Part shown: piece after piece, positions 1 through 12,752 of the stretch
Numbering within the stretch: the stretch's first letter is position 1
Layout: each line of letters begins with the position of its first letter
Origin: an uncultured Desulfosarcina sp.
GTDB lineage: Bacteria; Desulfobacterota; Desulfobacteria; Desulfobacterales; Desulfosarcinaceae
NCBI GenBank assembly: GCA_963674945.2
Contig: CAXXWQ010000004.1
Span: 1,344,001-1,408,000 of the forward strand
DNA length: 64,000 nucleotides
Direction of reading: 5' to 3'
Notes under the pieces: model-generated
The model's database searches: none
Told to the model about the DNA's origin: nothing
What the model saw: only the letters and a program-made list of their open reading frames with translations
Made by a program: the position numbers and the translations under genes

Positions 1-68
1 TAGCCCCCTGGGCTCAGGAGGCACCCAGGAGGCAAAAGGTGGGCAAAGGAGTCAAACACCCACCACAA

Positions 69-764
69 TCAATTATAATTCGGGTTTGGATTGAGCCCGC
101 GGGGATTGATGGCTTTTGCAATTCCCAACTGCCGATACGCCTCCTTTTCGGCATCCGGTGAGGTGCTCAATTGCCCTCCCTTTGGATTGACTGGTCCTTT
201 GCAACGGCCCTGGAGATTTCGCCAGTTAGAAACAAACACTTGTCTAAAATCCTCAACAATTTGCCCGTTACGGATTTTAAAATAACCTTGTGGGCTGTGT
301 TTTTTCAATTGCGCCGTAAGCTGCTCGATAGCCTTATCAATATCTTCAAGCCGTTTTTCGCGCTCGGCGTCGGAGAGGGCCTCCTCATTTTTTCCAGCGA
401 AGAGTACATCAATTGCCTTTTCCACATCCTCCCAATCAAGCTTGATGCAAACTTTTTGCAACTGTAAATTGCGTGTCGTTCGAATCATTAGCCTTGAAAA
501 AGGATCATTGGCCGAGCCATTGCCCTTTGCCAAGTACTTTGCCAAATAAGCTATTCTTTGATCTTCATAGGCTTGCCATGATGCTTTGTATCGTTTCAGC
601 ATATCTTCTTTAGCTGATTGGACCTTTTTGACCTCTGAGCACTTTGAACGAATGAATTTGATTTCATCCTTAATCTCTTGGCATCTTAAAAAATCGTCAA
701 CCCATTCATATGATGCAAGACTGTCATAATATGGTGGATGGAAGTTATATTTTACGTGTCCCAC
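69..764 (-). CDS. Hypothetical protein, 231 aa, predicted helical/coiled-coil
   Basis: Long ORF with GTG start and AAGGGGG RBS, tightly packed after 777..1067. Heptad-like stretch LSDAEREKRLEDIDKAIEQLTAQL. Confidence 0.75.
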   Translation of the reverse strand: MGHVKYNFHPPYYDSLASYEWVDDFLRCQEIKDEIKFIRSKCSEVKKVQSAKEDMLKRYKASWQAYEDQRIAYLAKYLAKGNGSANDPFSRLMIRTTRNLQLQKVCIKLDWEDVEKAIDVLFAGKNEEALSDAEREKRLEDIDKAIEQLTAQLKKHSPQGYFKIRNGQIVEDFRQVFVSNWRNLQGRCKGPVNPKGGQLSTSPDAEKEAYRQLGIAKAINPRGLNPNPNYN

Positions 765-776
765 GGTTACCCCCTT

Positions 777-1067
777 CTATTGGTTTTCTCGCTCGATATA
801 AGCCCTATGCACGTTGGGATGAAGGCGGATTACGGTGCGCATGGCGTCCACCTTACCGCAGCCATTGCGCTCCATGTGTTCGTCCACAAGCTGCTCAAAG
901 GACTTTGTTTCATCATCTTCTGTCCGGTCGATAGGACCGCCTCCGGATTCAAGATAAGCCTTGTGGGCCTCCGGATCGGATCGAACTACGGCTTTCATGG
1001 CCTTGGTCACGCCGCACTTGTGCTTCGTCCGGTACTCTCTGACTTGTGATTGAAAAGACTTACCCAT
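777..1067 (-). CDS. Hypothetical protein, 96 aa, made of two tandem copies of a 35-aa motif
   Basis: GAAAGGA RBS. Internal duplication F-x3-V-x8-C-x4-AM-x2-V-x-R-x2-P-x2-H. Confidence 0.8.
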   Translation of the reverse strand: MGKSFQSQVREYRTKHKCGVTKAMKAVVRSDPEAHKAYLESGGGPIDRTEDDETKSFEQLVDEHMERNGCGKVDAMRTVIRLHPNVHRAYIERENQ

Positions 1068-1078
1068 TTTTTTCCTTT

Positions 1079-1630
1079 CTACGAAAAGTCGACTTTAATG
1101 CCAGGGTTGAAGCTTTGTATAAACTCTCGATGAAGTCCGGGTTGCCTCCTGGCAACTTCCTGCATAGCCGAAGTCTTGCTGCATCGTCGTTTGGCCTGGA
1201 TAGTTGCAACAGCATCCATAAAATCGTTTTCATAAACATTACTGGACTGCTCAAGGTCCTTTAACAATCCATCTCTCACTTGTTTGAGCGCACTTACCTC
1301 CCCCGATGTATTCGTTGCCACAAGTCTCAACCCTTGAAACATTTCGTTTTCACCCAGCGCATCCCGGATATTCCTAAATTGATTGAGGGAAAGCCCAGCT
1401 TGTAAAATAGCCTCGAACCGCTCACACTGTTCGGGGCCAACAAAAGCTCGAAGCAATCCGATAATACGGGTTCTCTCGGCTTTGGAACTTGCGTCCCGTA
1501 TCTCCTGGTCGGCCTCCTGACGGGCATTTTCATAGATTTCACGGGCCTCCGCCTCATAAGGTGTCCCAATAAATTGAGCCAGCACGTCATTTTCTGAATC
1601 AGGTTTCTTTGGAAATTCAATTGTTTTCAT
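1079..1630 (-). CDS. Putative capsid scaffold-like protein (lambda Nu3/gpC C-terminal-like), 183 aa
   Basis: ATG at 1630 chosen as the likely start. The AERTRIIGLL segment resembles the Nu3-type scaffold region (recalled similarity, not searched). C-terminus carries a third copy of the 35-aa motif. Confidence 0.55.
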   Translation of the reverse strand: MKTIEFPKKPDSENDVLAQFIGTPYEAEAREIYENARQEADQEIRDASSKAERTRIIGLLRAFVGPEQCERFEAILQAGLSLNQFRNIRDALGENEMFQGLRLVATNTSGEVSALKQVRDGLLKDLEQSSNVYENDFMDAVATIQAKRRCSKTSAMQEVARRQPGLHREFIQSFNPGIKVDFS

Positions 1631-1713: not shown

Positions 1714-1740
1714 CAGTCCATCTCAGTCCACCTCAGTCCC
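1714..1740. repeat. Three direct repeats CAGTCC at exact 10-bp spacing (putative activator-binding sites)
   Basis: CAGTCC begins at 1714, 1724 and 1734, overlapping the stop of the HTH_17 gene and upstream of the late ORFs. Confidence 0.6.
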
Positions 1741-1953
1741 ATTTTTTTCATGAATGTACGTCCCATTTTCCAATTGATAGGATTGGATGATTTTGTCGAT
1801 GTATGTATCCAGAGATTTTGAAGTGATTCGGACAGAACTTCCAATTTTGCCGCCTTCAAGCTTGCCAGCAGCCAAGAGTCGCCGGATGGTTTTCGGATGA
1901 CAGCTCAAAATTTCGGCTGCTTCATCAACCGTTAACAATCTTTTCACCGCCAC
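1723..1953 (-). CDS. Excisionase-like HTH_17 DNA-binding protein
   Basis: LLTVDEAAEILSCHPKTIRRLLAAGKL...KIGSSVRI is a typical HTH_17/Xis winged helix. Confidence 0.85.
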   Translation of the reverse strand: MAVKRLLTVDEAAEILSCHPKTIRRLLAAGKLEGGKIGSSVRITSKSLDTYIDKIIQSYQLENGTYIHEKNGTEVD

Positions 1954-2292: not shown

Positions 2293-3915
2293 TCATATCC
2301 CGAACGGTGCATCGTCGGCCGTCGTTCCCATCGGCCGACCACCACTTGGGCCAGTTGGTGCCTGATCTTTCCAATTAGTGAGTAAACCGATTCCCCGGTA
2401 CCAAACCAGCCGATCCGGTACTCTTTCAAATCTTTTACCCAGGATCGTCCCGAACCGCTTCTGACTGATCGGCGTGTTGGAAATGTTTTCCAACCACCAC
2501 TCGCTGAAATTGTTGAAAAGATCCTTTGCACCTCCCCAGGCCTCATCATGAACGATGCAATTGGCCGAAAGCCACTCCCCGATCAAATCCTCTTCGGCCT
2601 GGTATTTTGCGGTAGCGTCACGAACCATCGCAGGTGGATCAAGCCCACGCTTCTGCCACTCTAAGCATCCGCGAATCATCCACGCCAAGATTCCACTGGC
2701 CTCGGCTTTGAGCTTTTCCGGCAGCGCCTTGTCCATCGGGAATTCATTGGGGTTTTGCGGATCATGATCGACAAAAACAGCATTGAAGGGTACCAGGTGC
2801 ATACGCCGCCAGAAGGCATAATCGTTGGCCGGCGCCCGTGGTTTGTCGTTGCAAATCAGAACGATCTTATGGGTTGGTGTGAAAGTGATTGGGTGTTTGT
2901 CGTGAGGATTTCTCCCGGTGAGTGAGTCGCCTCCGGTAAACCGTTTGACCGCCGACGCTGAAAACTTACGGCCATCATCGCTTTCGCTGGCCAAGGCCAG
3001 CCGTAAGCCTTTGAGCGCCATTATATCAGGCGAAGGCCCGGCGCTGTTTCTTATTCGGCCCTGGTCAAGCAGCATCTCAGGCTGTAAGACAGACGCGAGA
3101 GGTCCCATGACGTACTTGATCGTTTCGACTTCTGTTCCCTTGCCATTGCGTCCATCACCATAGAAGACCGGAAAAATGTGCTCACTGATATCACCGGTGG
3201 TAAAGTATCCTGCTAACCGCCTATGGTAGTTTTCCATTTCAACCATGGATAAGGTGACATCTTTCAAAAAACGGTCCCAGGTTGGCGCTGGATGATCGAT
3301 TCCTAAAAATTCAATTGGACTTGCCAACAGAATATTGTCTTCCGGCCTGCCTGGTCGCCCTTCTCCAGTTCGTAGGTCGATCACGCAGTTGGCGCAGCCA
3401 AGCAGCATCGGATCACGATCAAGCCTTTCAGACTCAATAACGATTCGATTATATTTGTTATTTGATGCAAAGCTCAGTGTTGATGATCGACCGTGCTCAC
3501 TCCTCAAGCGCTTAACCTGTTTGAAGATTTCGCTCTGGATGCGCTGGTAAAATGCAACCAACTTTTTATCTTCAGCCTCAGTTGCTTCAGAAATTTGATA
3601 TGCCGCGACATGAATCTGTTTGAGAAGCCAAATGACAACATCTTCAACAGAAGCCCGTGCCCTGCCAGTTGTGTCTCTCTTCCAGTGGTGGCCCTGCCAT
3701 TCAAGCCACTCGTCGGAAGTCGCATTGAAAATAAAACGCCCTTCAAACATATCCGCAAAGACCAGCCCACAGAATTGCTCACCACCATTGAGGATGTCGG
3801 TTATCTTGACCGTCCGAACCTGGTTAGCTTCCGGTTCTTCCTGGCCTTTGTCGGCAGCCTCTTCTTGGGCAACGCGGGCTTGAACTTTCCTTTTGATATC
3901 GTCAATCTCACTCAC
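2293..3915 (-). CDS. Phage/plasmid P4-family (D5-like) SF3 helicase, no recognisable N-terminal primase domain
   Basis: GTG at 3915 with GGAGG RBS overlapping the upstream stop. D5_N-like region (WLEWQGHHWKRD; LLGCANCVIDLRTG), Walker A GDGRNGKGT, SF3 motifs (LASES, VKRFTGGD, CNDKP, FWRR). Confidence 0.88.
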   Translation of the reverse strand: MSEIDDIKRKVQARVAQEEAADKGQEEPEANQVRTVKITDILNGGEQFCGLVFADMFEGRFIFNATSDEWLEWQGHHWKRDTTGRARASVEDVVIWLLKQIHVAAYQISEATEAEDKKLVAFYQRIQSEIFKQVKRLRSEHGRSSTLSFASNNKYNRIVIESERLDRDPMLLGCANCVIDLRTGEGRPGRPEDNILLASPIEFLGIDHPAPTWDRFLKDVTLSMVEMENYHRRLAGYFTTGDISEHIFPVFYGDGRNGKGTEVETIKYVMGPLASVLQPEMLLDQGRIRNSAGPSPDIMALKGLRLALASESDDGRKFSASAVKRFTGGDSLTGRNPHDKHPITFTPTHKIVLICNDKPRAPANDYAFWRRMHLVPFNAVFVDHDPQNPNEFPMDKALPEKLKAEASGILAWMIRGCLEWQKRGLDPPAMVRDATAKYQAEEDLIGEWLSANCIVHDEAWGGAKDLFNNFSEWWLENISNTPISQKRFGTILGKRFERVPDRLVWYRGIGLLTNWKDQAPTGPSGGRPMGTTADDAPFGI

Positions 3916-4480
3916 GGAGTGCGGCCTCCTTGTACGGACACTGGTTACACCAATCACCGTTTGGGTTGCGGCGGACCACAATTTTGATCTCATCCAGATG
4001 ACCGAGCTCGTCAAGCAGGTGCTCCACTTGTTTTAAGTAGAAGTCGTAGAGCAAATGGCCCTTTTCATGCTTACCGCCGACGATGATAATGGCATCCATT
4101 ATCGTTGTGCGGAACATGGTCTTCAGGCTTGCATCGAAAACCCCAATTGCCATAGCCTGGTTCAGTTCCACTTGAGAGCGCTCGACATACTTGCCTGCAA
4201 GTAGCTTGTTACGCATTTCTTGCTCTTCAGCCTTAGCTAGCAGCAGCCGGTTTTTTAGATCCAGGTTTTCAGTAGCGCTTTTCGGCGGGCGCTTATCGGT
4301 GAAAGGCAGGGGCTTTTTTTTAGCGTATTTGAGAAGGGATTTTTTGGGATATCTCCCACCTACACTTTCGATCAACCCAGGACGCTTGAGGTCTGAATAG
4401 AACGTTGAGCGGCTTACTTTGAACCCCTCGGCTTTCAAAAAAGCAATTGCTTCAGCTGCATTCAGTGTCTCTTCTGTCAT
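3908..4480 (-). CDS. Nu1-like terminase small subunit (wHTH + coiled coil)
   Basis: N-terminal HTH (AEAIAFLKAEGFKVSRSTFY) followed by RLLLAKAEEQEMRNKLLAGKYVERSQV, a pattern typical of Nu1/DUF1441-type TerS. A cos-like site lies immediately upstream. Confidence 0.65.
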   Translation of the reverse strand: MTEETLNAAEAIAFLKAEGFKVSRSTFYSDLKRPGLIESVGGRYPKKSLLKYAKKKPLPFTDKRPPKSATENLDLKNRLLLAKAEEQEMRNKLLAGKYVERSQVELNQAMAIGVFDASLKTMFRTTIMDAIIIVGGKHEKGHLLYDFYLKQVEHLLDELGHLDEIKIVVRRNPNGDWCNQCPYKEAALRE

Positions 4481-4664
4481 CTGTCCAATTTTCCGAGTTT
4501 TTTAGAAATTTCAAATGGATACGCCGATCGAGCCTTAGTCCGCCGCTCCATGGTATATTCCAGGAAGGACCCGCGAGGTCTACCCATCGATAGCTGTCGA
4601 TGCAGGGTTCATTGACCATTTGGCCGGAGAAAAATATGGGGGCGTGGGGGTTTCTCTCACCCAT
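4452..4664 (-). CDS. Possible small hypothetical ORF overlapping the cos-like site
   Basis: ATG at 4664 with GGAGG RBS overlaps the upstream stop, and the ORF end overlaps the TerS start. No recognisable domain. Confidence 0.3.
   Translation of the reverse strand: MGERNPHAPIFFSGQMVNEPCIDSYRWVDLAGPSWNIPWSGGLRLDRRIHLKFLKNSENWTDDRRDTECS
4537..4580 (-). other. Putative lambda-like cos packaging site (cosQ + cosN-like)
   Basis: Minus strand reads GACCTCGC-GGGTCCT-(17 nt)-GAGCGGCGGACT. GGGTCCT equals lambda cosQ, and the 12-mer matches the lambda cohesive end GGGCGGCGACCT at 9/12. Confidence 0.55.
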
Positions 4665-4863
4665 GGTTAAGATCCTCCACTTTGATACCTGGTGCATTCT
4701 GTATCCACCGCACTATCTCCGAGCGAATGAATAGCAGCCTACCGCCCGGTTTCCTGAAGGGTATCGCTCGACGCAATACAAGGTTGCGAACAGCGCCAGG
4801 CGATCTCTGGATCATCTCGGCGCATTGGTTGGTGTCCATGTATTCAGGCGGTAGCTGTTTCAT
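4657..4863 (-). CDS. AlpA/excisionase-like HTH_17 protein
   Basis: YMDTNQCAEMIQRSPGAVRNLVLRRAIPFRKPGGRLLFIRSEIVRWI is a typical HTH_17 pattern; GAAGGGA RBS. Confidence 0.85.
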   Translation of the reverse strand: MKQLPPEYMDTNQCAEMIQRSPGAVRNLVLRRAIPFRKPGGRLLFIRSEIVRWIQNAPGIKVEDLNHG

Positions 4864-5432: not shown

Positions 5433-6167
5433 TTATTTACTGTAAACAACCTTGTGAATTTCGTCGATGAAATCCCATCCGATTTCTTCAAATGTTCGCT
5501 CCCAAAAAGCATCTTCATCGAAATACATTTCGATTTGGTATTGAACATCCGAAACAGCCTTCCCAAGATTTAAGGCATGTGCCAAATCCTTGGTTTTGAG
5601 GGTTTGAGCCATAAGCATTAATTCTACGAATTCATCCGGAACCCTTTCAAAACTATCTTTTTCAATCACAGGGAAGCTCAATATCGTATTATGACCCTTC
5701 CAGTCTTGCTCAGAACAAAACCAAAGAAAAACACTACCATTTGGCTCCATTTCTTTCATTTTATTGAAAAATTTAGGTTGAATGATTTCCTTCTCTTCCG
5801 GTGACGCATCCAGATGGTCCGTTAGAAAATCCCATAGCGCACTGATTATGGTAAGTTTATGAATAATACCCTTTGATTCAGCATACCCTATTAATTTGAC
5901 AAGCTGTTTTTGGTCTATTTCGTCGATCATTTTGGCAACGGTTTTTCTGTCAAATCCAGAAGTCTTTAAGGTCTTGAACACCCCCAACTTATATAGGTCA
6001 TTTATTCCAAGCGTATGCGCAGGCCTCCCACGGCCACCAGACTTTTCACCTTCCTTTGGTTCGACGGCATCAAGGAAGCCAAGCCACTTGTTCAGCTCGT
6101 TTGTTGAAAGACTCAAAATGGCTTGAGCCTCTTTTTTGGAATATGTTCTAGAAAAGTCAAAACTCAT
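5433..6167 (-). CDS. MerR-like HTH regulator with uncharacterised C-terminal domain
   Basis: N-terminal YSKKEAQAILSLSTNELNKW...GRGR...INDLYKLGVFKTLKTSGF matches the MerR-type wHTH layout; GGAG RBS. Confidence 0.7.
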   Translation of the reverse strand: MSFDFSRTYSKKEAQAILSLSTNELNKWLGFLDAVEPKEGEKSGGRGRPAHTLGINDLYKLGVFKTLKTSGFDRKTVAKMIDEIDQKQLVKLIGYAESKGIIHKLTIISALWDFLTDHLDASPEEKEIIQPKFFNKMKEMEPNGSVFLWFCSEQDWKGHNTILSFPVIEKDSFERVPDEFVELMLMAQTLKTKDLAHALNLGKAVSDVQYQIEMYFDEDAFWERTFEEIGWDFIDEIHKVVYSK

Positions 6168-6243: not shown

Positions 6244-6362
6244 AATTAAAAATAGATAGGCTGAGGTGTTGTGGATTTTGATGGGACTTCATCGGCGAAA
6301 AGGGTACTTTTTGAGTATTTCTGTACTCTGAGTGATGTTTGCAGGTGAGAACTATGAAAAGC

Positions 6363-6423: not shown

Positions 6424-6498
<75 letters not shown>

Positions 6499-7201: not shown

Positions 7202-7252
7202 GATGCGTCGCCTGTTATCTCATTTGGGTGAATTGTGGCTTCGCTTTTTCCT

Positions 7253-7897
7253 CTATTTTTTCGCCTTTTCCCAGTCCGCCAAGAAGGCGTCGAGCCCCTT
7301 GTCCGTCTGCGGATGGGCCGCCAGCTTGCTCAGCACGTTAAAGGGAATGGTGCAGATGTCCGCTCCGGCCATCGCGGCATCTAACACGTGCAGCGGATTC
7401 CGGATGCTGGCCACGATAATCTCCGTATCGTAGGAGTAATTGGCGTAAATCTCCACGATCTGCTCCACAAGCAGCATGCCGTTTTGGGCGATGTCGTCCA
7501 GCCGTCCCACGAAGGGGCTGACATAGGTCGCCCCGGCCTTGGCCGCCATGAGTGCCTGAAGGGGGGAGAAGACCAGGGTGACATTGGTCTTGATGCCTTC
7601 TTCGGTAAGCTGCCGGGTCGCCTTGAGCCCCTCCACCGTCATGGGAATCTTGATGACGATATTCTCGTGAATCTTGGAGAGTGGTCTTGCCTCATCGACC
7701 ATGCCTGCTGCTTCCAGGCTGATCACCTCGGCGCTGATGGGACCATCCACGATCTCGCAGATCTCTTTGATCACATCCTCAAATACCCGTCCCGACTTGG
7801 CGATCAGTGAGGGATTGGTGGTCACCCCGTCGACCATGCCCATGCTATGGGCCTCTTTGATTTCATCCACGTTGGCGGTATCGATAAAAAATTTCAT
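7253..7897 (-). CDS. tal: Transaldolase / fructose-6-phosphate aldolase family (TalC/FSA)
   Basis: [35 protein letters not shown]. Confidence 0.92.
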
Positions 7898-8002
7898 TCT
7901 TCACATTCCTTTTTCCGTCTGGTAAGGTGTTGAAAATTATCAGTATACTATTTTCGCGTCTATTCACGCCCGGACAAACGCAGGAAATCTGGAATTGTAT
8001 CC

Positions 8003-8257
8003 CTATTGCCGCTCCTTTAAGAACCGGTCCCGGCAGTCGGTAGAGCAAAACAGAAGCGTCTGACCTTCGTGTTCCAAGGCCACCCCTTCCCGCCGTGGAA
8101 AATGGATACCGCATACCGGATCCTTGACCATAACGTCGTCCAGACGGGAATTGGATGCGTTCCCGACAGGGCCTGAGGTCAGGATCTTTCCGATTGCCCA
8201 GGATTTTACGGCCCTGTACACCAGGTAAACGATGACGAGCAGCAATAAAAGCTTCAC
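8003..8257 (-). CDS. YHS/TRASH-domain small membrane protein
   Basis: N-terminal hydrophobic helix; VKDPVCG...FCSTDC motif. Confidence 0.8.
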   Translation of the reverse strand: MKLLLLLVIVYLVYRAVKSWAIGKILTSGPVGNASNSRLDDVMVKDPVCGIHFPRREGVALEHEGQTLLFCSTDCRDRFLKERQ

Positions 8258-9676: not shown

Positions 9677-10150
9677 TCAATCCGTGACCGGTGTTCGGGA
9701 CCAGACGTCGACATCCACAAGATCGGAATCGGGTCCGGTTCCACCGGGCATCACCAGGTTGACCTTGAAAACGTAGTGATAGTCCGATTCCACAGGAACC
9801 TGCAGTTCATACCGATTATCGTCGCGATCCACATATCCGATGGTGGCCATTTTCTCGAACACCTGGAGGCATCCTTGGCAAACCTCCATTTCAAGGGAAG
9901 ACTTTGCGCCGTAGATGACAAACTTCGCATGCTTCGCCTGTGTTCGGTGCAGTGGTTCAGACAAGGACCAGGTCAGTTTCACCCATGGCGCCTGTACGAC
10001 GCCGGCCAGGTCCACCACCCGGGGCACGGGCCGCTGCCAAAGGGGTTTCGGCGGCCCCTTGACGCCGCAGCCGGCAAACGACAAAACGCACAGCCAGCCA
10101 ATTACCGATAGCCCCAACCAGAAGGTGGTCTTACCCCTTTTCGACATCAC
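9677..10150 (-). CDS. Lipoprotein (LptM/LPAM-like lipobox)
   Basis: Signal peptide plus FAGCGVKGPP; conserved position downstream of argH. Confidence 0.8.
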   Translation of the reverse strand: MMSKRGKTTFWLGLSVIGWLCVLSFAGCGVKGPPKPLWQRPVPRVVDLAGVVQAPWVKLTWSLSEPLHRTQAKHAKFVIYGAKSSLEMEVCQGCLQVFEKMATIGYVDRDDNRYELQVPVESDYHYVFKVNLVMPGGTGPDSDLVDVDVWSRTPVTD

Positions 10151-11532
10151 GCCTTCTTGGCCAGCGCTTTCCTGGCGTCGGACAGGGCCTCGACGACCCG
10201 CTCGGTGGCCGTTCCACCGAGACTTTGACGGCGGTCGATCATGTGTGCGACGGTCAGGTGTTCAAAGATATCCGCCTGGATCAGCGAAGAGAACTCTTTC
10301 AGCTCATCCAGGGTCAATTGGTCAAGTTCCTTACCCGTGTCCAGTGCATAGGCCACGGCGCTTCCCACACAGGCGTGGGCTTTTCGAAACGGCATCCCCC
10401 TGGCCACCAGGTAATCGGCCATGTCCGTCGCGTTTAAAAATCCCGCAGATGCGGCCTTTGCCATGGCCGCTTTGTTGACGGTGATGTTGGGGAGCATCGC
10501 GACGTTGATGGAGAGACAGGCCCTAAGTGTGTCCACGGCATCGAACAGCGGCTCCTTGTCCTCTTGCATGTCGCGGTTGTACGCCAAGGGAAGGCTCTTC
10601 ATGATGGTGAGCAGGGATACCAGTGCCCCGAATACCCGTCCGGACTTTCCGCGCACGATCTCGGGGATATCCGGATTCTTTTTCTGGGGCATGATGCTGC
10701 TGCCCGTCGAAAAGGCATCGGACAAGGTGATGAATCCGAACTCCGATGTGGACCAGAGCACCAGTTCCTCGGAAAGCCGGCTTAAATGAACCATGCAGAT
10801 ACCGGCGTCGGCGAGAAACTCCATGACAAAATCACGATCGGACACCGCATCCATGCTGTTGGCGCTTACCTTGGGAAAATCCAGCAATTTGGCAACAAAT
10901 TCACGGTCGATGGGATAGGTGGTGCCGGCCAGGGCCGCCGCCCCCAAAGGCATGACGTCGATGCGTGCCAGACAGTCGGCGAAACGATCCTGGTCCCGGG
11001 AAAACATCTCGTAATAGGCCAGCATGTGGTGGGAAAAGAGTACGGGCTGCGCCCGCTGGGTGTGGGTGTAGCCGGGCATGACCACATCCTTGTGGGCGTC
11101 GGCCAGATCCACCAGCACCGTGCGCAGAGAGTGCAACAGATCGAGGATGCGACGGGTCTCTTCCCGCAGATACATGCGAACGTCCAGAGCCACCTGGTCG
11201 TTGCGGCTGCGGGCGGTGTGCAGTTTGAGGGCCACCTTCCCCGCCACCTGCAACAGACGGGCTTCGATGTGCATGTGGATGTCTTCCAGGCTGTCATCGA
11301 ATTCGAAATCTCCGCGATCCAACTCCCGTTTGATGGTGCCAAGCCCCTCCACCAGCTGTACCGCCTCCGCATCGGTGATGACGCCGACCTTGGCCAGCAT
11401 TTTACAATGGGCGATGGAACCTTTGATATCGTACGGATAGAGCTTGCTGTCATATGCGATGGAAGCGGTGAAGGCCTCCACGCTTTTATCCGTCTTCTCG
11501 GAAAAGCGACCGTCCCAGGGTTTTCCCACCAT
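10147..11532 (-). CDS. argH: Argininosuccinate lyase
   Basis: LHTARSRNDQ, GSSIMPQKKNPD. Confidence 0.97.
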   Translation of the reverse strand: MVGKPWDGRFSEKTDKSVEAFTASIAYDSKLYPYDIKGSIAHCKMLAKVGVITDAEAVQLVEGLGTIKRELDRGDFEFDDSLEDIHMHIEARLLQVAGKVALKLHTARSRNDQVALDVRMYLREETRRILDLLHSLRTVLVDLADAHKDVVMPGYTHTQRAQPVLFSHHMLAYYEMFSRDQDRFADCLARIDVMPLGAAALAGTTYPIDREFVAKLLDFPKVSANSMDAVSDRDFVMEFLADAGICMVHLSRLSEELVLWSTSEFGFITLSDAFSTGSSIMPQKKNPDIPEIVRGKSGRVFGALVSLLTIMKSLPLAYNRDMQEDKEPLFDAVDTLRACLSINVAMLPNITVNKAAMAKAASAGFLNATDMADYLVARGMPFRKAHACVGSAVAYALDTGKELDQLTLDELKEFSSLIQADIFEHLTVAHMIDRRQSLGGTATERVVEALSDARKALAKKA

Positions 11533-11540
11533 GGTCCTTC

Positions 11541-12752
11541 TTACCCTTTCCGTTCCATTAATTTGCGAATCCGCAGGCGCAGGGCATGAAGCCGGATGAA
11601 TCCTTCGGCATCCGCCTGCCTGTATACATCGTCATCCTCGAAGGTCGCATGGGCCTCACTGTAAAGGGAGCGGTCGGATTTTCTGCCTCTGACGATGCAG
11701 TTTCCCTTGTACAATTCGAGGCGGACCACCCCGGAAACGTTGGTCTGGGTACTGTCGATCATCTTCTGTAGTACCTCCATCTCCGGAGAGAACCAGAAGC
11801 CATTGTATATGAGCTCTGCGTATCTTGGAATCTGCGAATCTCTCAGGTGCATCACCTCACGATCCATTGTGATGGATTCCATGGCCATGTGGGCCAATCG
11901 CAAGATGGTGCCGCCGGGTGTCTCGTAGACACCTCTCGATTTCATGCCCACGAAACGGTTCTCCACGAGGTCGACGCGGCCGATGCCGTGCTTTCCGCCC
12001 AGCCGGTTCAACACGGCAAGCAAATTGGCCGGTGAAAGGGCCTTGCCGTCGATTGCCACCGGATCACCGGCGTCGAAGGTGATCTCTATGGTCTCGGGTT
12101 CGTTCGGGGCATCCTTGGGCGAGACCGTCAAGGTGAAGATGTCGTCCGGTGGTGCGGCCCATGGATCCTCAAGGATTCCACCTTCGTAGCTGATGTGCAA
12201 GAGGTTGCCGTCGGTACTGTATGGTTTGGCGTGGGTGGTGGGTACCGATATACCGTGTTTTTCCGCAAAGGCCATGAGGGCGGTCCGGGAAGTAAGGTCC
12301 CACTCACGCCATGGCGCCACGATCTTTATGGCCGGATTCATGGCGTAGTAGCCCAACTCGAAACGGACCTGGTCGTTGCCCTTTCCCGTGGCGCCGTGGC
12401 TCACCGCATCGGCGTCTTCCATGGCGGCGATCTCCATCTGCCGCTTGGCGATGAGGGGTCTGGCGATGGCGGTTCCCAGCAGGTATTGTCCTTCGTAAAT
12501 CACGTTGGCCCGAAAGGCGGGAAAGACATAATCCTTGACGAACGTCTCCTTCAGGTCATCCACATAGGCCTTGACCGCCCCGGTCTTCAAGGCATTGGCC
12601 TCCACATGGTCCATGGCATCGACCTGGCCGATGTCGGCGGAAAAGGTAACCACTTCGCATTCGTAGGTTTCGATGAGCCACCGCAAAATCACCGATGTGT
12701 CCAGACCACCCGAATATGCCAGCACCACTTTGTTTATTTTTTTATCACCCAC
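11541..12752 (-). CDS. argG: Argininosuccinate synthase
   Basis: [33 protein letters not shown]. Confidence 0.97.

Follow-up and report, generated by a model that had tools for sequence, protein, structure and literature searches.

Two adjacent genes in the window (the whole 64,000-nucleotide stretch of DNA that was analysed) encode proteins that sequence comparison shows to be homologous to the scaffold part of phage head-maturation proteases of the S49 family. The longer product, P0002 (183 aa), is a homolog of the part that follows the protease in those phage proteins, and the shorter, P0001 (96 aa), is made up of two copies of the domain with which that part ends (Table 1). Both genes are in one operon of an island that is, by its architecture, a P4/PICI-like satellite. 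On balance, we favor the reading in which P0002 and P0001 are satellite scaffold mimics that likely compete with the scaffold of a helper phage for the major capsid protein.

Table 1. Features of the island; positions are those of the window unless another locus is named
Feature	Position	Strand	Evidence
231-aa helical/coiled-coil protein, directly downstream of the P0001 and P0002 genes	69..764	-	conserved position
P0001, two copies of the scaffold C-terminal domain	777..1067	-	alignment, AF2, profile
P0001 repeat 2, residues 56-90	798-902	-	
P0001 repeat 1, residues 4-38	954-1058	-	
P0002, homolog of the post-protease (Nu3-like) scaffold part	1079..1630	-	BLASTP, alignment, profile
P0002 C-terminal domain, residues 136-170	1121-1225	-	
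HTH_17 (excisionase/AlpA-type), directly upstream of the cassette	1723..1953	-	Pfam E = 5e-14
D5_N / P4-alpha-type primase-helicase, replication gene	2293..4014	-	Pfam E = 1e-24, PHROG DNA primase E = 4e-86
190-aa protein, weakly small-terminase- or HTH-like	3908..4480	-	phrog_57, E = 3.5e-4 only
Second HTH_17 (AlpA-like) regulator	4657..4863	-	Pfam E = 4.5e-09
244-aa island protein	5433..6167	-	no family found (Pfam, PHROGs)
Right-hand 49-nt attachment repeat, in the 3' part of tRNA-Cys (6424-6498, minus strand)	6424..6472		
Left 49-nt repeat, identical, 12,201 nt away, outside the window	L002 9223-9271		

The repeated motif and its relatives in head protease-scaffold proteins

A preliminary description of this DNA had reported one 35-residue motif, with nine invariant positions, three times across the two adjacent genes, and our alignments bear this out. 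The best ungapped 35-residue segments, two in P0001 and one in P0002, are identical to one another at 14/35, 11/35, and 11/35 positions; the corresponding BLOSUM62 scores are 78, 59, and 52. In 1000 shuffles no score reached the observed range (52-78), the top shuffled score being 31. The invariant residues are F, V, C, A, M, V, R, P, and H, exactly the nine listed, and the motif spans approximately 35-45 aa. P0001 and P0002 also match each other in BLASTP (E = 6e-06). A profile made from the three copies found no further meaningful match in the 7.08-Mb genome, where the next best scored 13 bits (E ~0.8).

Among 101 related genomes, the three-copy profile gave strong matches (E <= 1e-6) in eight, the present genome included; the matches at E = 0.01-0.1 in a further nine are probably due to chance. 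Those in the relatives fall at the C-termini of frames of 456-627 aa, and in four genomes (G020, G009, G032, and G010) the domain forms the extreme C-terminus of a 470-610-aa head-maturation protease of the Peptidase_S49/phrog_53 type. In the prophages of these relatives, the S49 protease-scaffold gene is followed by one for a Phage_cement_2 protein and then by one for a phrog_1005 major head protein, the same head gene order as in lambda, in which C with its nested nu3 is followed by D and then E. The C-termini of S49 head proteases beside major-capsid genes are the location that the preliminary description had predicted for relatives of a capsid-binding scaffold motif.

That description had also named an outcome that would count against a role in the head, namely that the motif would turn up in DNA- or metal-binding proteins, and this was not what the larger searches returned. 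A 16-copy profile compared with 1.84 billion representatives gave 1079 matches at E <= 0.001, with 201 of them at E <= 1e-10. The best 149 of these 1079 comprise 37 with Peptidase_S49, four with Clp protease only, and 108 without a Pfam family; no DNA- or metal-binding Pfam family occurs among them. About two dozen of the matches listed are two-copy proteins of at most 125 aa (24, or 21 by a stricter envelope rule). Some library proteins carry three or four copies, and since some library protease-scaffold fusions carry two, bivalency is not confined to satellites.

Five residues (F, V, A, P, and H) do not vary among the 16 domain copies, and four of these copies have S, V, or I in place of the cysteine. 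We rejected a Cys/His metal site because of these substitutions, and we likewise rejected a reading of the domain as a DNA-binding HTH, which found support neither in the library families nor in the fold search described below.

Other searches returned little. A word-indexed search of 5.8 billion proteins yielded the query alone, and no match was obtained among 50,697 phage records when P0002, P0001, and a phage-type scaffold part were used as tblastn queries. A five-row domain alignment retrieved no relatives from the contigs of genomes, viruses, or metagenomes, and an Atlas search gave weak leads only (viral hypotheticals, 0.86; Mu-like_Pro, 0.80). For homologs of the helper-type capsid protein, the source labels read Desulfosarcina.

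P0002 is collinear with the post-protease region of the phage proteins, the end domain included. BLASTP aligned its residues 27-175 with residues 322-462 of the 470-aa S49 protease-scaffold of G020 (E = 7e-13), and against a 470-position profile of full-length protease-scaffolds it matched positions 318-468 only. A 13-row alignment is collinear over the AE..RI.GL motif, a G.T.EQY motif, and the end domain, in that order. A Pfam scan detected no PF01343 in P0002, which agrees with the earlier view of it as a scaffold homolog lacking the S49 domain. The protease part (profile positions 1-300) has no match anywhere in the island, on the P0002 polypeptide or elsewhere, and the island has no portal, cement, or major capsid protein (MCP) gene, so that P0002 is not encoded between portal and capsid genes.

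The segment AERTRIIGLL, which is present in P0002 as reported, had been likened to the scaffold part of lambda gpC/Nu3. The G020 protein is 29% identical to lambda gpC over 377 aa (E = 4e-39), in an alignment that runs into Nu3. Because this alignment includes lambda AENSRIMGIL, a form of the AE..RI.GI motif that is present also in P0002, the likeness holds in substance. The link is nevertheless transitive only, passing through a relative, as no similarity of Nu3 to P0002 or to the end domain could be detected. Direct homology of P0002 to lambda Nu3 was rejected (BLASTP E = 24, hhalign probability 0.1, and no HMM match).

P0001 had been described as a bivalent mini-protein made only of the end domain, and both the profile and the structural model agree with this. 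It matched positions ~423-468 of the protease-scaffold profile twice, which places its homology at the C-terminal end of the helper-type scaffold, and its two repeats are 44% and 48% identical to the end domain of the G010 prophage. An AF2 model from a 27-row alignment (pLDDT 83.9) has two three-helix units, with predicted helices at residues 5-16, 20-30, and 32-40 and then at 57-68, 72-82, and 84-95; the linker, residues 41-55, is predicted to be disordered. The ATG is preceded by an AAGGA ribosome-binding site. Foldseek comparison of the model with the PDB found nothing at E <= 0.001, the top and non-significant matches being IHF/HU at E ~5, and neither P0001 nor P0002 could be assigned to a meaningful Pfam or PHROG family.

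The use of the domain in phages was surveyed in 939 kb of IMG/VR sequence, comprising 80 loci that surround relatives of the protease-scaffold. Forty-four of them carry the domain, in 41 cases within the protease frame, where it is always single-copy, and in the other three within separate scaffold-like frames of 173-190 aa. A stand-alone two-copy gene occurs in none of the 80. Where at least 2.5 kb of downstream DNA was available (62 loci), an A8-type MCP follows 34/34 domain-bearing proteases and 18/28 domain-less ones. This link between the domain and the A8-type capsid family is suggestive only, because the relatives in the sample are not independent.

The satellite-type island and its sister islands

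The island is 12.2 kb long, or ~10.6 kb when the IS is subtracted, and it has perfect 49-nt direct repeats at both ends, at tRNA-Cys. A second perfect direct repeat, of 23 nt, lies just inside both ends (window 6267-6289 and L034 2331-2353), with one copy inside the C-terminal fragment of the integrase; it could be an arm-type site or the trace of an older insertion. All the island genes are on the minus strand, and those in the window encode, in order, the 244-aa protein, an HTH_17 protein, the 190-aa protein, a D5_N primase, the other HTH_17 protein, P0002, P0001, and the 231-aa protein. Left of the window the island continues with small ORFs, the gene for an HNH endonuclease, two genes without an assigned function, and the IS-split integrase gene. 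The HNH endonuclease (L002 13114-13836) has homing-endonuclease-associated repeats (PF18780 and PF01844).

The assignment to the P4- and PICI-like satellites rests on the integrase, the AlpA-type regulator, the P4-alpha/D5_N primase, a length in the range of ~10-15 kb, and the tRNA site. Judged by gene content, the island is integrative and self-replicating and lacks capsid genes: Pfam, PHROGs, and profile searches found no capsid, portal, or protease gene in it, and an MCP match is absent from all nine island loci (0/9). No Pfam or PHROG family of the P4 hallmarks sid, psu, and delta was found among the scanned island proteins.

The halves of the tyrosine integrase lie at L002 9301-9627 and 11310-12119, to either side of a DDE_Tnp_1_4 IS transposase (9757-11127), and since the gene is split in this way, this copy of the island probably cannot excise. 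At L034 7491-8024 (window -509..24), short ORFs lying in two different frames correspond to one and the same 178-aa gene in the sister island L033, and a 177-aa ORF at the same place has no match itself; the gene there is probably frameshifted. With an integrase split by the IS and a gene past the 231-aa gene that looks frameshifted, the copy may be decaying.

The genes for P0002, P0001, and the 231-aa protein are spaced by 11-12 nt and have ribosome-binding sites, and no terminator-like site was found within the block from 1953 to 69. The AF2 model of the 231-aa protein (pLDDT 73.7) is mainly helical, with long helices. Comparison with the PDB and BFVD gave nothing significant, the best match being an uncharacterised phage protein at E = 0.036, and an Atlas search gave nothing useful for this protein. 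It is likely the third member of the cassette.

The arrangement of HTH_17 gene, scaffold part, two-copy gene, and 231-aa gene also occurs in two related genomes, G010 and G004. The G004 island (L031) has the HTH_17 gene, a P0002 homolog, a two-copy gene, and a 244-aa homolog in the position of the 231-aa gene, after which host genes follow. Between its primase and HTH_17 genes, this island also has a 291-aa ORF (7205-8080) of three nearly identical tandem units of ~88 aa, for which no family was found. The order is the same in one G010 island (L030), in which the 231-aa homolog is cut by an IS and the protease part is retained, broken into three frames. These frames (10721-11683) correspond to profile positions 14-202, 204-303, and 345-468, and by its sequence the broken gene looks like an intermediate toward a protease-less scaffold.

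A different cut-down of the same helper-type protein is found in the second G010 island (L033 3944-4996) and in genome G301 (L064 13295-14410), where the protease is fused to the end domain without the scaffold core; profile positions ~285-407 are missing in both, as judged by comparison with the profile. In L033 the protease-end-domain gene is followed by a 231-aa homolog, and in L064 tail genes are also nearby. In genome G286 (L063), the gene for a 342-aa protein with the end domain precedes one for a 222-aa homolog of the 231-aa protein, and integrase and primase genes adjoin them. Altogether, homologs of the 231-aa protein occupy the matching position in L031, L033, L030 (truncated), and L063, and HTH_17 homologs lie upstream of the cassette in L033, L061, L031, L063, and L030. 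In the three other contexts of two-copy small proteins that we examined (L060, L061, and L062), integrase, replication, and HTH_17 genes lie alongside. G010 has in addition an S49-type prophage with the domain (L032), and this genome thus contains a putative helper together with two islands.

The domain profile matched 22 of the 401 genomes in an order-level sample and four of the 401 in a phylum-level sample, and the cassette recurs across families of the order. Each of the three domain copies studied here is closest to its positional counterparts in the sister islands (55/43%, 55/36%, and 51/48% identity). A 75-row tree agreed in grouping the P0001 sub-family into a clade of first repeats (eight rows, support 91/88) and a clade of second repeats (six rows, 97/68), although with only 46 columns many forks of the tree are open. 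In several other mini-proteins, both copies pair with each other. The tree suggests that the mini-proteins may have arisen by repeated independent duplications.

Proposed function and alternatives

Analogy with the 80alpha scaffold and CpmB, with P22, and with P2 gpO suggests that the end domain is, most likely, the tip through which the scaffold binds coat protein. The operon of HTH_17, P0002, P0001, and 231-aa genes would be expressed upon infection by a helper or upon its induction. P0002 would then enter the assembly as an internal scaffold lacking a protease, while P0001, a single chain with two predicted binding units ~15 flexible residues apart, could staple neighboring coat subunits or capsomers and, like a CpmB dimer, alter the curvature of the shell. 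Together, the two might outcompete the helper scaffold and favor small shells, and the resulting small procapsids would fit the ~10.6-kb island and exclude the helper genome.

A profile search found no domain-bearing S49 protein in this genome. There is a Mu-like prophage (L029, G000:C4:1774001-1794000) ~430 kb from the island, with a module of portal (phrog_113), Mu-F-like protein, protease-scaffold (phrog_976), MCP (phrog_1005), and tape measure. Its MCP belongs to the PHROG family shared with the domain-bearing prophages, and the last 31 residues of its scaffold show weak similarity to the domain under a richer profile (12.1 bits, E = 8e-6 in a single test). It is a possible helper of the island.

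The same genes could instead serve interference alone. The mimics would in that case poison helper capsid assembly, as an anti-phage decoy on behalf of the island or the host, and no small capsids would form; displacement of the protease-scaffold, for instance, could leave procapsids protease-less or unclosed. The homology and context evidence for this is identical to that for capsid redirection. P0001, having no scaffold core, could be a pure competitor, and in the domain-bearing phages the protease and the end domain enter the procapsid as parts of one polypeptide. We nevertheless consider interference alone rather unlikely, since an island of ~10.6 kb without its IS and a conserved multi-gene cassette suit packaging-oriented satellites, and since P0002 retains the whole scaffold core, which a simple decoy would not need. 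A further question is whether coat protein is the partner at all: the end domain might bind the portal, the protease itself, or DNA, and the island proteins would then be directed at that partner. The published account of P2 procapsids describes no ordered contact of gpO with gpN, and its authors suggest that gpO may bind the portal (PMC7552001); the domain is moreover a small three-helix unit in the AF2 model, the top fold matches of which, although non-significant, are those to IHF/HU. We think such a partner improbable, in view of the co-occurrence of the domain with head proteases only among the best 149 of its 1079 matches and the single MCP family that accompanies it in all 34 domain-bearing viral loci. 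The absence of any matched DNA-binding family argues in the same direction, as do the cysteine replacements in a quarter of the 16 copies in the case of a Cys/His site for metal.

Decay offers another explanation, in which the genes are leftovers of a captured phage head gene and are functionless in this genome. The IS-split integrase, the fragmented downstream gene, the protease part broken into three frames in the G010 sister island, and the failure to find a cognate helper in this genome are all consistent with it. Both ORFs, however, are intact, with ribosome-binding sites and a spacing of 11-12 nt; no domain copy has lost the invariant residues, and each has its own orthologs in three islands; and a cassette that recurs across families of the order is not what inert remnants would be expected to leave. 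Of the readings considered, we regard this as the least probable.

If scaffold mimicry is correct, a bolder proposal may be made, to which we attach a good deal less confidence. Proteins of the P0001 type might form a new and minimal class of capsid-size determinants, each a staple in one chain, composed solely of two coat-binding scaffold tips and produced by separate duplications in several lineages of satellites. Such a staple, a scaffold lacking the protease, and the conserved 231-aa coiled-coil partner would make up a set of three proteins that rebuilds lambda-type helper capsids to satellite size. Sister islands would use other cut-downs of the helper protein (protease plus tip, with no scaffold core).

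Scaffold mimicry by this cassette would extend the strategy to helpers with a lambda-type protease-scaffold and to a sediment-type lineage of anaerobes. The end domain of the scaffold, newly defined here, has 1079 representatives in the library and belongs to no Pfam family; its profile could mark satellites and pair them with their helper phages in metagenomes. P0001, with two domains in 96 aa, could be a small system in which to study how the spacing of coat-binding sites sets shell curvature.

Comparison with known capsid-redirection systems

To our knowledge, the only capsid-redirection mechanisms known are those of Sid, CpmA/B, Ccm, TcaP, and Rcm, all of which come from Proteobacteria or staphylococci. 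A literature search on satellite proteins related to Nu3 or to S49 protease-scaffolds found no relevant paper. P4 Sid is a capsid-size determinant encoded by a satellite, as is TcaP of PLE (PMC10945586). Sid and TcaP form external cages unrelated to the helper scaffold, whereas the proteins described here are homologs of an internal scaffold.

The helper-type prophages share with lambda the order of protease-scaffold, decoration or cement protein, and major capsid protein, but lambda Nu3 lacks the 45-aa end domain of their scaffolds. P0002 differs further from Nu3 in being encoded by a separate gene, in an island without head genes. In P2, the C-terminal domain of gpO is the scaffold, gpO being reported as a protease-scaffold fusion (PMC7552001).

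The nearest parallel to P0001 is SaPI1 CpmB and its model, gp46 of 80alpha. According to the report on that system, the C-terminus of CpmB copies the coat-binding helix-and-hook of the 80alpha scaffold, and CpmB dimers straddle two capsomers (PMC5644958). Like CpmB, P0001 is a small helical protein encoded by a satellite-type island, putatively bivalent, and with a C-terminus resembling the end of a helper-type scaffold. It differs in having, in the model, two tandem three-helix domains in one chain in place of a dimer of helix-and-hook tails. It differs also in the type of helper, which here would have a lambda-like S49 protease-scaffold fusion, and the function of the proteins in the present island is putative. 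A second mimic that retains the scaffold core (P0002) is present here, unlike in the CpmB system.

For P0002, the closer comparison is with Rcm of SaPIpT1028, which reportedly interacts with coat protein and redirects the size of capsids (PMC12409344). Rcm resembles the multi-helical scaffold of its own helper, and its authors propose that the topology of a switcher mirrors that of the cognate scaffold (PMC12409344). As a putative switcher, P0002 fits this rule, although Rcm belongs to another fold family and another bacterial phylum. By analogy with these two systems, we judge the cassette of P0002 and P0001 to be a putative variant of the scaffold-mimic strategy of CpmB and Rcm.
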